DNA of 64,000 nt from Escherichia coli O157:H7 (lineage in GTDB: Bacteria; Pseudomonadota; Gammaproteobacteria; Enterobacterales; Enterobacteriaceae), in the NCBI RefSeq assembly GCF_013167455.1, contig NZ_CP038328.1. One strand, written 5' to 3'. Numbering within the stretch: the first letter of the stretch is position 1; each line of letters starts with the position of its first letter. The position numbers and the translations under genes are program-made. The notes under the pieces were generated by a model, which was not told where the DNA came from, searched no databases, and saw only the letters and a list, made by a program, of their open reading frames with translations. Below are positions 29,120-46,955 of this stretch, one piece after another.

Positions 29120-31048
29120 ATGCCTGTTATAACTCTTCCTGATGGCAGTCAACGCCATTACGACCACGCTGTAAGCCCCATGGATGTTGCGCTGGACATT
29201 GGTCCAGGTCTGGCGAAAGCCTGTATCGCAGGGCGCGTTAATGGCGAACTGGTTGATGCTTGCGATCTGATTGAAAACGACGCACAACTGTCGATCATTA
29301 CCGCCAAAGACGAAGAAGGTCTGGAGATCATTCGTCACTCCTGTGCGCACCTGTTAGGGCACGCGATTAAACAACTTTGGCCGCATACCAAAATGGCAAT
29401 CGGCCCGGTTATTGACAACGGTTTTTATTACGACGTTGATCTTGACCGCACGTTAACCCAGGAAGATGTCGAAGCACTCGAGAAGCGGATGCATGAGCTT
29501 GCTGAGAAAAACTACGACGTCATTAAGAAGAAAGTCAGCTGGCACGAAGCGCGTGAAACTTTCGCCAACCGTGGGGAGAGCTACAAAGTCTCCATTCTTG
29601 ACGAAAACATCGCCCATGATGACAAGCCAGGTCTGTACTTCCATGAAGAATATGTCGATATGTGCCGCGGTCCGCACGTACCGAACATGCGTTTCTGCCA
29701 TCATTTCAAACTAATGAAAACGGCAGGGGCTTACTGGCGTGGCGACAGCAACAACAAAATGTTGCAACGTATTTACGGTACGGCGTGGGCAGACAAAAAA
29801 GCGCTTAACGCTTACCTGCAGCGCCTGGAAGAAGCCGCGAAACGCGACCACCGTAAAATCGGTAAACAGCTCGACCTGTACCATATGCAGGAAGAAGCGC
29901 CGGGTATGGTATTCTGGCACAACGACGGCTGGACCATCTTCCGTGAACTGGAAGTGTTTGTTCGTTCTAAACTGAAAGAGTACCAGTATCAGGAAGTTAA
30001 AGGTCCGTTCATGATGGACCGTGTCCTGTGGGAAAAAACCGGTCACTGGGACAACTACAAAGATGCAATGTTCACCACGTCTTCTGAGAACCGTGAATAC
30101 TGCATTAAGCCGATGAACTGCCCGGGTCACGTACAAATTTTCAACCAGGGGCTGAAGTCTTATCGCGATCTGCCGCTGCGTATGGCCGAGTTTGGTAGCT
30201 GCCACCGTAACGAGCCGTCAGGTTCTCTGCATGGCCTGATGCGCGTGCGTGGATTCACCCAGGATGACGCGCATATCTTCTGTACTGAAGAACAAATTCG
30301 CGATGAAGTTAACGGATGTATCCGTTTAGTCTATGATATGTACAGCACTTTTGGCTTCGAGAAGATCGTCGTCAAACTCTCCACTCGTCCTGAAAAGCGT
30401 ATTGGCAGCGACGAAATGTGGGATCGTGCTGAGGCGGACCTGGCGGTTGCGCTGGAAGAAAACAACATCCCGTTTGAATATCAACTGGGTGAAGGCGCTT
30501 TCTACGGTCCGAAAATTGAATTTACCCTGTATGACTGCCTCGATCGTGCATGGCAGTGCGGTACAGTACAGCTGGACTTCTCCTTGCCGTCTCGTCTGAG
30601 CGCCTCCTATGTGGGCGAAGACAACGAGCGTAAGGTACCGGTAATGATTCACCGCGCAATTCTGGGGTCGATGGAACGTTTCATCGGTATCCTGACCGAA
30701 GAATTCGCTGGTTTCTTCCCGACCTGGCTTGCGCCAGTTCAGGTTGTTATCATGAATATTACCGATTCACAGTCTGAATACGTTAACGAATTGACGCAAA
30801 AACTATCAAATGCGGGCATTCGTGTTAAAGCAGACTTGAGAAATGAGAAGATTGGCTTTAAAATCCGCGAGCACACTTTGCGTCGCGTCCCGTATATGCT
30901 GGTCTGTGGTGATAAAGAGGTGGAATCAGGCAAAATTGCCGTTCGCACCCGCCGTGGTAAAGACCTGGGAAGCATGGACGTAAATGAAGTGATCGAGAAG
31001 CTGCAACAAGAGATTCGCAGCCGCAGTCTTAAACAATTGGAGGAATAA
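29120..31048 (+). CDS. thrS: threonyl-tRNA synthetase
   Basis: 642-aa ORF with TGS, editing and class-II catalytic domains. Confidence 0.95.
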
Positions 31049-40405: not shown

Positions 40406-41881
<1,476 letters not shown>

Positions 41882-43399: not shown

Positions 43400-43417
43400 G
43401 CACTAGTTCTCTAGTAC
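43400..43417 (-). promoter_or_regulatory. TrpR operator of aroH
   Basis: Minus-strand GTACTAGAGAACTAGTGC is a near-perfect match to the trp-operator palindrome GTACTAGTT/AACTAGTAC; it overlaps the last codons and stop of ppsR. Confidence 0.65.
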
Positions 43418-44244
43418 ATTCGGCGACTAAGGCCCATGATATCGAGGATCTTGGTGGCAATCTCTTCTACCGAATAATTGGTACTGTTAATCCACGGGAT
43501 CTGATTTTTACGGTACAAGGCTTCCACTTCCGCGACTTCCATCCTGCACTGACGAAGCGAGGCATAGCGACTGTTCTCCCGACGTTCCTCGCGAATCGCC
43601 GCCAGACGTTCCGGGTCGATAGTCAGGCCGAACAATTTATGCTGAAGCGGTTTGAGCGACGCGGGTAGCACCAGATTATCCATATCGTCGGCAATAAAGG
43701 GGTAGTTTGCCGCGCGGATACCAAATTGCATTGCCAGATACAGACTGGTGGGGGTTTTACCACAGCGAGAAACACCGAGCAGGATCACCTGAGCCTGATC
43801 CAGATTGCGCAACGAAATGCCGTCATCGTGGGCGAGGGTGTAATCAATCGCCGCAATGCGCGCATCATATTTATTGAGATTATTAGGGTTAAGGCCATGG
43901 GTACGATGAGCAATCGGCGTTGGATCCAGTTTCATCTCTTGTTGTAGCGGGGCAACCAGCGCCTGAACGATATCCTGGCAAAAACCTTCACTTTGCAAGA
44001 TGATGGCGCGAATTTCCGGCAACACGATGGAGTAGAAGACCAGCGGACGCACGCCTGTCTGGTGATAAATTGCGTCAATCTGATCCTTCACTGCCCGTGC
44101 ACGGCTCTCATTTTCGACAAACGGCAGCGTGATGCTGCTGATAGTGACGGGAAATTGTGACATTACTGCGTGTCCTAATACCTCCGCAGTTATTGCCGTA
44201 CCATCAGAAATATAAAAAACGTGGCGATCAACAGCATTATCCAT
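43411..44244 (-). CDS. ppsR: PEP synthase regulatory protein (bifunctional kinase/pyrophosphorylase)
   Basis: 277-aa ORF with P-loop (GVSRCGKT); divergent from ppsA; synonym ydiA. Confidence 0.9.
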
Positions 44245-44474
44245 TTTGTTCTTCCCGTGATGCAGACATAATTCTATGAAAGCATAAATTAAAAACGCAC
44301 AGAAGCGTAGAACGTTATGTCTGGTTTATAAAATGAACCTTCAATTTTATTTTTTATGAAAACAGCATTTCATTTTTATGGTTTCGTTTATACCGATGGT
44401 TTATGTGGAAATTGTCGAAAAGAGCAGATTTGCGCAACGCTGGGATCAGTCTTAACAAGTAAAAAAATATATTT

Positions 44475-44490
44475 GCTTGAACGATTCACC
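44475..44490. promoter_or_regulatory. putative Cra (FruR) box upstream of ppsA
   Basis: GCTTGAACGATTCACC matches the Cra consensus GCTGAAACGTTTCAGC at 11 of 16 positions; ppsA is a Cra-activated gluconeogenic gene. Confidence 0.3.
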
Positions 44491-44576
44491 GTTTTTTTCA
44501 TCCGGTTAAATATGCAAAGATAAATGCGCAGAAATGTGTTTCTCAAACCGTTCATTTATCACAAAAGGATTGTTCG

Positions 44577-46955
44577 ATGTCCAACAATGGCTCGTCACCG
44601 CTGGTGCTTTGGTATAACCAACTCGGCATGAAGGATGTAGACAGGGTTGGGGGCAAAAATGCCTCCCTGGGTGAAATGATTACTAACCTTTCCGGAATGG
44701 GTGTTTCCGTTCCGAATGGTTTCGCCACAACCGCCGACGCGTTTAACCAGTTTCTGGACCAAAGCGGCGTAAACCAGCGCATTTATGAACTGCTGGATAA
44801 AACGGATATTGACGATGTTACTCAGCTTGCGAAAGCGGGCGCGCAAATCCGCCAGTGGATTATCGACACTCCCTTCCAGCCTGAGCTGGAAAACGCCATC
44901 CGCGAAGCCTATGCACAGCTTTCCGCCGATGACGAAAACGCCTCTTTTGCGGTGCGCTCCTCCGCCACCGCAGAAGATATGCCGGACGCTTCTTTTGCCG
45001 GTCAGCAGGAAACCTTCCTCAACGTTCAGGGTTTTGACGCCGTTCTCGTGGCAGTGAAACATGTATTTGCTTCTCTGTTTAACGATCGCGCCATCTCTTA
45101 TCGTGTGCACCAGGGTTACGATCACCGTGGTGTGGCGCTCTCCGCCGGTGTTCAACGGATGGTGCGCTCTGACCTCGCATCTTCTGGCGTGATGTTCTCC
45201 ATTGATACCGAATCCGGCTTTGACCAGGTGGTGTTTATCACTTCCGCATGGGGCCTTGGTGAGATGGTCGTGCAGGGTGCGGTTAACCCGGATGAGTTTT
45301 ACGTGCATAAACCGACACTGGCGGCGAATCGCCCGGCTATCGTGCGCCGCACCATGGGGTCGAAAAAAATCCGCATGGTTTACGCGCCGACCCAGGAGCA
45401 TGGCAAGCAGGTTAAAATCGAAGACGTACCGCAGGAACAGCGTGACATCTTCTCGCTGACCAACGAAGAAGTGCAGGAACTGGCAAAACAGGCCGTACAA
45501 ATTGAGAAACACTACGGTCGCCCGATGGATATTGAGTGGGCGAAAGATGGCCACACTGGTAAACTGTTCATTGTGCAGGCGCGTCCGGAAACCGTGCGCT
45601 CACGCGGTCAGGTCATGGAGCGTTATACGCTGCATTCACAGGGTAAGATTATCGCCGAAGGCCGTGCTATCGGTCATCGCATCGGTGCGGGTCCGGTGAA
45701 AGTCATCCATGATATCAGCGAAATGAACCGCATCGAACCTGGTGACGTGCTGGTCACTGACATGACCGACCCGGACTGGGAACCGATCATGAAGAAAGCA
45801 TCTGCCATCGTCACCAACCGTGGCGGTCGTACCTGTCACGCGGCGATCATCGCTCGTGAACTGGGCATTCCGGCGGTAGTGGGCTGTGGTGATGCAACAG
45901 AACGGATGAAAGACGGTGAGAACGTCACTGTTTCTTGTGCCGAAGGTGATACCGGTTACGTCTATGCGGAGTTGCTGGAATTTAGCGTGAAAAGCTCCAG
46001 CGTAGAAACGATGCCGGATCTGCCGTTGAAAGTGATGATGAACGTCGGTAACCCGGACCGTGCTTTCGACTTCGCCTGCCTGCCGAACGAAGGCGTGGGC
46101 CTTGCACGTCTGGAATTTATCATCAACCGTATGATTGGCGTCCACCCACGCGCACTGCTTGAGTTTGACGATCAGGAACCGCAGTTGCAAAACGAAATCC
46201 GCGAGATGATGAAAGGTTTTGATTCTCCGCGTGAATTTTACGTTGGTCGTCTGACTGAAGGGATCGCGACGCTGGGTGCCGCGTTTTATCCGAAGCGCGT
46301 CATTGTCCGTCTCTCTGATTTTAAATCGAACGAATATGCCAACCTGGTCGGTGGTGAGCGTTATGAGCCAGATGAAGAGAACCCGATGCTCGGCTTCCGT
46401 GGCGCGGGACGCTATGTTTCCGACAGCTTCCGCGACTGTTTCGCGCTGGAGTGTGAAGCAGTGAAACGTGTGCGCAACGACATGGGGCTGACCAACGTTG
46501 AGATCATGATCCCGTTCGTGCGTACCGTAGATCAGGCGAAAGCGGTGGTTGAGGAACTGGCGCGTCAGGGGCTGAAGCGTGGTGAGAACGGGCTGAAAAT
46601 CATCATGATGTGTGAAATCCCGTCCAACGCCTTGCTGGCCGAGCAGTTCCTCGAATATTTCGACGGCTTCTCAATTGGCTCAAACGACATGACGCAGCTG
46701 GCGCTCGGTCTGGATCGTGACTCCGGCGTGGTGTCTGAACTGTTCGATGAGCGCAACGATGCGGTGAAAGCACTGCTGTCGATGGCGATTCGTGCCGCGA
46801 AGAAACAGGGCAAATATGTCGGGATTTGCGGTCAGGGTCCGTCCGACCACGAAGACTTTGCCGCATGGTTGATGGAAGAGGGGATCGATAGCCTGTCTCT
46901 GAACCCGGACACCGTGGTGCAAACCTGGTTAAGCCTGGCTGAACTGAAGAAATAA
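44577..46955 (+). CDS. ppsA: phosphoenolpyruvate synthase
   Basis: 792-aa ORF with PEP-utilising enzyme domains and catalytic His region ([13 protein letters not shown]). Confidence 0.95.

Follow-up and report, generated by a model that had tools for sequence, protein, structure and literature searches.

The 64-kb stretch of DNA that was analysed, called the window here, carries two divergently transcribed genes separated by a control region of 332 bp. The minus-strand gene, ppsR (ydiA; 43411-44244), encodes the regulatory kinase/phosphorylase of phosphoenolpyruvate (PEP) synthetase, a protein of 277 amino acids that matches the NCBIfam equivalog NF049928 (E=2e-129) and corresponds to b1703 of K-12. 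The plus-strand gene, ppsA (44577-46955), encodes the 792 amino acid phosphoenolpyruvate synthase, which matches the equivalogs NF005057 and TIGR01418 (E=0) and corresponds to K-12 b1702. PpsR is, in work ascribed to Burnell in 2010, reportedly an ADP-dependent kinase and Pi-dependent pyrophosphorylase, which inactivates and reactivates PpsA. The neighbours of the gene pair are aroH, fadK and selO, as in E. coli. The intergenic region (44245-44576) has an A+T content of 66.9%, as opposed to 50.7% in the whole window. A first-pass annotation, made from the sequence alone, had described an AT-rich divergent region of 332 bp at this place, with ppsR transcribed in the direction opposite to ppsA. 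The open reading frames and the NCBIfam models gave exactly the same boundaries, and the equivalog matches bore out the identities of both genes.

The ppsR-ppsA spacer is 100% identical to that of O157:H7 genomes, and among 5426 complete E. coli genomes, 5420 have it at an identity of at least 95%. In K-12 MG1655 the spacer is also 332 bp long and differs from the window in two of the 332 bases, 44420 and 44456, both of which lie outside the Cra box and the ppsA promoter described below. Because the K-12 spacer differs only at these positions, experiments performed in K-12 are directly applicable to the window. Of 5417 E. coli genomes, 4555 carried the 81-bp segment from the Cra box to the predicted transcription start site at an identity of 99% or more. 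With E-values up to 1, an Rfam scan of 44100-44750 returned no match, indicating that the spacer contains no known RNA element, and a promoter/terminator scan of the spacer region did not call any terminator. The small RNA ArcZ has been reported as an activator of ppsA (PMC11331407).

The Cra (FruR) operator of ppsA maps to 44475-44490, which corresponds to positions 1787199-1787214 of K-12 (NC_000913.3). Its minus-strand sequence is GGTGAATCGTTCAAGC; the plus-strand form, GCTTGAACGATTCACC, has a single occurrence in the 64-kb window. The minus-strand segment GGTGAATCGTTCAA (44477-44490) agrees without mismatch with the 14-bp Cra consensus RSTGAAWCSNTHHW, as quoted in PMC5829826, and this is the only match to the consensus in the whole window. 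The two halves of the site are unequal: the promoter-proximal strong half-site, GTGAATCG (44482-44489), is perfect, and the distal weak half-site (44475-44481) is degenerate. In the canonical Cra register four of the eight position pairs are complementary. The ppsA Cra site is asymmetric and half-palindromic, and it is no true palindrome. The first-pass annotation had spoken of a 'Cra-like palindrome', which was correct with respect to Cra, the match to RSTGAAWCSNTHHW being exact, but not with respect to the symmetry. An alternative reading of the site as a TGAA-N3-TTCA dyad was dropped because the left arm varies across spacers; in Enterobacter-type spacers the sequence is TTACACGATTCA.

The site was also scored with matrices that were independent of ppsA. 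The upstream regions of 15 other Cra targets of K-12 (fruB, pykF, pfkA, tpiA, icd, aceB, pck, fbp, edd, epd, ptsH, mtlA, adhE, ppc and gapA) were subjected to a de novo search for a palindromic motif, with ppsA left out, and Cra matrices were then made from 14 sites. Thirteen of these upstream regions yielded the Cra box, including those of fruB (GCTGAAACGTTTCAAG), epd (ACTGAAACGCTTCAGC), pfkA (CCTGAATCAATTCAGC) and fbp (GGTGAATCGCGCCAGC). With the oriented matrix the ppsA site scored 15.65 bits (leave-one-out range of the source sites 7.1-21.8 bits) and ranked first among 127,970 positions. A matrix scan had been proposed as a check in the first-pass annotation, and its outcome is that the ppsA box is the top oriented-matrix match in 64 kb. 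With the palindromic matrix the score was 14.1 bits (leave-one-out range 4.6-20.7 bits), which made the ppsA box the third distinct site in the window. The leave-one-out median was about 14-15 bits for both matrices, and the ppsA site is inside the range of bona fide sites.

Taken alone, the sequence and matrix matches are not convincing, because 0.49 matches to RSTGAAWCSNTHHW are expected per 64 kb, with at least one match in 39 of 100 shuffles, and because scores as high as that of the ppsA site were obtained in 22-35% of shuffled 64-kb windows. Chance is excluded by the combination of three observations: a Cra score of the same level has P ≤0.001 in shuffled spacers, the site is conserved across genera, and its spacing to the extended -10 element is fixed.

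Further matches to the Cra matrix, at 27988-28003, 41794-41809, 30670-30685 and 21026-21041, scored 11-15 bits and occurred at about the frequency predicted by shuffling. The matches at 27988, 30670 and 41794 lie within long open reading frames (41794 in selO) and were rejected as Cra sites, since they are probably chance matches. The match at 21026-21041 is probably also due to chance, like the other secondary matches.

For the analysis of conservation, a scan with PpsR, using one genome per species, yielded 80 Enterobacteriaceae loci, 78 of them with both gene starts, and 77 distinct Enterobacteriaceae spacers were aligned with MAFFT. The spacer length was 327-341 bp in most of the 78 species. 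In the alignment of the 77 spacers the identity to the window was 0.95 for the Cra box, as compared to a spacer mean of 0.64. The Cra box and the adjoining T-run form the best-conserved stretch of the spacer: the only windows that exceeded the 16 columns of the Cra box were those overlapping it. TGCTT and ACGATTCA were invariant in the 77 distinct spacers, and CGATTCA was found in all 78 loci. The strong half-site did not vary, and the single common variation, GA to AC, fell in the weak half. Longer spacers were present in Intestinirhabdus alba (575 bp), a Buttiauxella sp. (451 bp) and Siccibacter (392 bp). The extra length suggests insertions, and all three retained the Cra box and the -10 element.

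Conservation of the site extends beyond the Enterobacteriaceae. In Serratia, Dickeya, Yersinia ruckeri, Erwinia and Pantoea, where the spacer is 262-472 bp long, the top Cra-matrix match of each spacer was found at the homologous place. These sites, which read GGTGAATCGATCAACC, GGTGAATCGATCAAGC, GTTGAATCGATCAAGC and GTTGAATCGTTAAAGC, scored 12.4-15.7 bits and were followed, at equal spacing, by TGTGCnAGnCT, while the remaining part of the spacer was unalignable. The depth of this conservation is consistent with a report that the FruR regulon has expanded to central metabolism in Enterobacteriales (PMC4052901).

The Cra box abuts the ppsA promoter. An extended -10 element, TGc followed by AAAGAT, was assigned to 44513-44521 on the plus strand; the assignment of the hexamers is putative, and the -35 position was placed by counting a 17-bp spacer from the -10 element. 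At this -35 region there is a T-run, GTTTTTTT (44491-44498, plus strand), which directly adjoins the Cra box, has a conservation of 70-100% and makes a poor -35 hexamer. T44513, G44514, A44517 (position 2 of the -10 hexamer), T44521 (position 6) and G44528 were invariant across the 77 spacers, and the remaining positions of the hexamer were variable (AAAGAT, CAGGAT or CAGTAT). In 69 loci the Cra box was separated from the TG by 31 nt, and in nine loci by 32 nt; the distance between the Cra box and the ATG ranged from 87 to 218 nt across the 78 loci. In the window 94.5 bp separate the centre of the Cra box, 44482.5, from the ppsA ATG downstream of it. According to PMC7897506, Nègre et al. (1998) located the centre of the operator at -45.5, and adding 45.5 to the centre would place the ppsA transcription start near 44528 on the plus strand, at a G situated 7 nt past the -10 hexamer. 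We infer, with little latitude, that the published -45.5 geometry and this sequence coincide. The 5′ UTR would then be about 49 nt long, with a Shine-Dalgarno sequence, AAGGA, at 44565-44569 (plus strand). The AAGGATTGT block around the Shine-Dalgarno sequence was conserved in the spacer alignment.

The ppsA promoter was not among the calls of a generic sigma-70 scan, which missed it because of the weak -35. The scan called only two minus-strand candidates, at the frequency expected from shuffled sequence, and for this reason it was not accepted as evidence in either direction.

[quoted passage not shown] Its identity with the footprinted operator is supported by the -45.5 geometry, by the motif match and by the Ramseier/Nègre operator sequence; the ppsA operator listed by Ramseier et al. 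is reportedly GGTGAATCGTTCAAGC, the same as the site in the window. A full-text literature search with the literal operator sequence of both strands found no relevant paper in which the sequence was printed. The known K-12 operator (Nègre et al. 1998 J Mol Biol 276:355; Ramseier et al. 1993/1995) and the site described here have the same locus, sequence and regulator, the same activation and the same effectors, and the window differs merely in being that of an O157:H7-type strain.

Published work documents the control of ppsA by Cra in some detail. According to PMC7897506, which describes the results of Nègre et al. (1998), E. coli FruR acts at ppsA as a class I activator that strengthens the binding of the alpha C-terminal domain of RNA polymerase, the promoter keeps a basal level of transcription without FruR, and FruR activates it in vitro. 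Binding of Cra, and its release by fructose-1-phosphate or fructose-1,6-bisphosphate, were reported for K-12 by Nègre 1998 and Ramseier. The ppsA promoter was induced 16-fold on acetate relative to glucose, and a promoter with a scrambled Cra site served as the constitutive control (PMC5555440). PpsA was among the most strongly decreased proteins after deletion of cra (PMC8363753), and fructose-1,6-bisphosphate largely explains the activity of the ppsA promoter across conditions (PMC5293157). Synthetic promoters and biosensors make use of the operator, O_ppsA, as a module for Cra binding (PMC9948231).

These data point to the following mechanism. Cra, a member of the LacI/GalR family, would bind the asymmetric 16-bp site with the strong half directed toward the ppsA promoter. 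The core promoter appears to combine a good extended -10 element (TGcAAAGAT) with a T-run in place of the -35 hexamer, and it is presumably weak alone because of this replacement. Bound Cra would offset the weak -35 by helping RNA polymerase to bind through its alpha C-terminal domain. At high glycolytic flux fructose-1-phosphate or fructose-1,6-bisphosphate would release Cra and transcription of ppsA would decrease, while on acetate or pyruvate Cra would remain bound and ppsA would be induced. The ppsR gene, whose product switches PpsA off and on by phosphorylation, would be transcribed divergently from its own promoter at the opposite end of the spacer. Of the elements of this scheme, the match, the matrix rank, the conservation and the spacing to the -10 element were computed here, and the binding, the -45.5 position, the role of the alpha C-terminal domain and the effectors were taken from the literature. 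The first-pass annotation had regarded the sequence as consistent with gluconeogenic activation of ppsA, and the site is indeed upstream of the core promoter, in agreement with the published -45.5 geometry. It had put the likeness to a Cra/FruR operator as a mere resemblance, which understated the case in view of the exact consensus match, the independent matrix and the conservation.

The ppsA site fits well among the known Cra operators. Those of fruB (O1/O2), pykF, pfkA, epd, aceB, fbp, pck, ptsH and ppc are of the GCTGAAWCGWTTCAGC type and likewise consist of a strong and a variable half. The operators of fbp (GGTGAATCGCGCCAGC) and pck (GGTGAATCGATACTTT) resemble that of ppsA in having a GGTGAATCG start and a poor second half. 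In this small sample the activated gluconeogenic targets of Cra tend to have the more asymmetric sites. In the repressed genes fruB, pykF and pfkA the site is, according to the literature, over or downstream of the promoter, whereas the ppsA site is upstream and activating. The arrangement is also similar to class I activation of the CRP type, in which an upstream dimeric activator likewise aids RNA polymerase where the promoter has a weak -35. The two differ in that the centre of the ppsA operator, at -45.5, lies farther upstream than the classical class II position (-41.5) but not as far as that of class I (-61.5), and in that Cra belongs to the LacI family whereas the regulator of the CRP system belongs to the CRP family.

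The end of the spacer next to ppsR contains a highly conserved block, TAATTCTATGAAAGCATAAATTAAAA (44268-44294, either strand), upstream of the ppsR start codon at a distance of 25-50 bp. The conservation of the block is 80-100%, and a44281, g44282 and t44285 are invariant. The block is probably the ppsR core promoter. The invariant bases fit a minus-strand -10 element, TATGCT (44286 to 44281), and equally a plus-strand TGn-AAGCAT; the minus-strand reading would put the predicted ppsR start near 44274. Another candidate ppsR promoter, ATGAAA-18-TAAAAT, would place the start at about 44337. A repeat search found only short A+T-rich pairs, and one of these consists of 44275-44289, within the block, and 44511-44525, in the -10 region of ppsA, with 12 of 15 bases identical. 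It is because of this pair that the strand of the block is ambiguous.

Other regulators have been connected with the region. A PdhR box, AGTTGGTTATACCAAAG, known from genomic SELEX, was reported to be located between ppsA and ppsR (PMC7660256). An exact match to this string is present at 44607-44623 on the minus strand. The box is actually intragenic, 31 nt past the ppsA ATG, and covers codons 11-16 of the ppsA coding sequence. Binding of CRP near ppsA was also reported by genomic SELEX (PMC3105977). The sole CRP-like sequence in the spacer, TGTGGAAATTGTCGAA (44404-44419), has three mismatches to TGTGA-N6-TCACA and is poorly conserved.

The second conserved zone of the spacer is in its centre (44330-44378). 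It includes a dyad, ATGAAA-N6-TTTCAT, whose arms are conserved and whose centre is variable. A KdgR matrix (motif AATRAAACANTGTTTYAWT) was derived de novo from the K-12 sites of kdgT, kdgK, kduI (two sites) and tabA. The best match to this matrix in the window was a candidate KdgR-like box, box B, ATGAAAACAGCATTTCATT (44356-44374), with 16.4 bits, less than any of the five bona fide K-12 KdgR sites obtained in leave-one-out scoring (19.9-27.4 bits). A score of this level has a P of about 0.08 per 64 kb and of 0.002 per shuffled spacer. A second position, box A, AATGAACCTTCAATTTTAT (44332-44350), is 25 bp from box B in the direction of ppsR. In E. coli it is degenerate and scores 0.1 bit. In most other genera the aligned position has a sequence of the AATGAAACnnTnTTTTTAT or AATGAAACGGTATTTTTAT type, which scores 11-27 bits and is usually the best match there, and the spacing of 25 nt was found in 34 of the 34 loci scored; Citrobacter and Pluralibacter are examples with a strong box A. 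We regard 44356-44374 and 44332-44350 as candidate KdgR boxes, and, judged from its score, box A appears to have decayed in E. coli. PMC6127512 cites Rodionov 2004 for the control of ppsA and ydiA by KdgR in Dickeya dadantii, where the two genes were reportedly both predicted and tested as targets. The middle of the spacer is similar to members of the pectin/KDG regulon, which is controlled by the IclR-family repressor KdgR through boxes of the AATRAAAYRNYRTTTYA type, in that it has one or two KdgR-like 19-mers at conserved positions; it differs in that box B of E. coli ppsA is weaker than the bona fide K-12 sites (19.9-27.4 bits) and box A has probably decayed. In the Enterobacteriaceae the distance is 52-54 nt from the ppsR-proximal block to box A and 124-128 nt from box B to the Cra box, despite a mean identity of only 64%. 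The first-pass annotation had correctly recognized the Cra element of the spacer but had missed the KdgR-like boxes and the ppsR-proximal block, as well as the PdhR box within ppsA.

Could the Cra-like sequence be a chance match in a block that is conserved only as the ppsA core promoter, as a -35 or UP-like T-run, without any binding of Cra? The 0.49 consensus matches expected per 64 kb and the equal scores in 22-35% of shuffled windows would be in keeping with such an explanation, and the block does abut the -35 region, where part of the conservation could be related to the promoter. The invariant bases, however, are exactly those of the Cra strong half-site (ACGATTCAC) and do not make up a -35 hexamer. 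A score of this level has P ≤0.001 in the spacer, the site is kept in distant Enterobacterales amid unalignable sequence, and direct control by Cra has been established in published genetics and biochemistry (PMC7897506, PMC5555440, PMC8363753). We consider a chance match highly improbable. It is just as hard to believe that the site is mainly bound by a different LacI-family paralogue and that the control of ppsA by Cra is indirect. The matrix that ranked the site first in the window was made exclusively from Cra targets, deletion of cra strongly lowers PpsA (PMC8363753), scrambling of the Cra site abolishes the flux dependence (PMC5555440), and in vitro activation by FruR was reported (Nègre 1998, in PMC7897506). 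These results outweigh the features that might favour a paralogue, namely the central CG and the TGAA-like arms, which are common to LacI-family operators, and the good fit to Cra of one half only of the ppsA site.

A further question is whether the Cra box works in both directions and controls ppsR as well, so that the enzyme and its regulator would be co-induced by a single operator. The genes are divergent and functionally coupled, the spacer length and the spacings of the elements are strongly conserved in the Enterobacteriaceae, and both genes were reported to be regulated by KdgR in Dickeya (PMC6127512). The centre of the box is, however, separated from the ppsR start codon by 238 bp and from the two candidate ppsR promoters by roughly 145-210 bp, and because of these distances it is too far away for a simple activator of ppsR. 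Moreover, the conservation of the spacer length does not hold outside the Enterobacteriaceae (262-472 bp), and the literature examined contained no report that Cra controls ppsR. Bidirectional control is therefore unlikely in our view, and the preferred reading is that the box is the Cra operator of ppsA.

The operator has been known since the 1990s, when its position, mode of action and physiological role were worked out. The Cra operator couples glycolytic flux, sensed by Cra through fructose-1-phosphate or fructose-1,6-bisphosphate, to the step that first commits pyruvate to gluconeogenesis, and the ppsA Cra site is widely used as a flux biosensor part. The comparison presented here makes modest additions to this knowledge: the geometry between the operator and the extended -10 element is invariant in Enterobacterales, and the strong half of the operator is invariant while the weak half drifts. 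To these can be added the remaining part of the spacer, in which the KdgR-like boxes and the block next to ppsR are conserved and have putative roles in E. coli. Rather speculatively, and with a low probability in our view, the approximately 330-bp spacer might be a multi-regulator module of fixed geometry, composed of the ppsR-proximal block, two KdgR-like boxes and the Cra box, which would coordinate ppsR with ppsA across the Enterobacteriaceae and of which E. coli would have lost the stronger KdgR box. If this were true, the loss of box A in E. coli would mean that in this particular lineage the pyruvate/PEP node was rewired away from KDG/pectin sensing.
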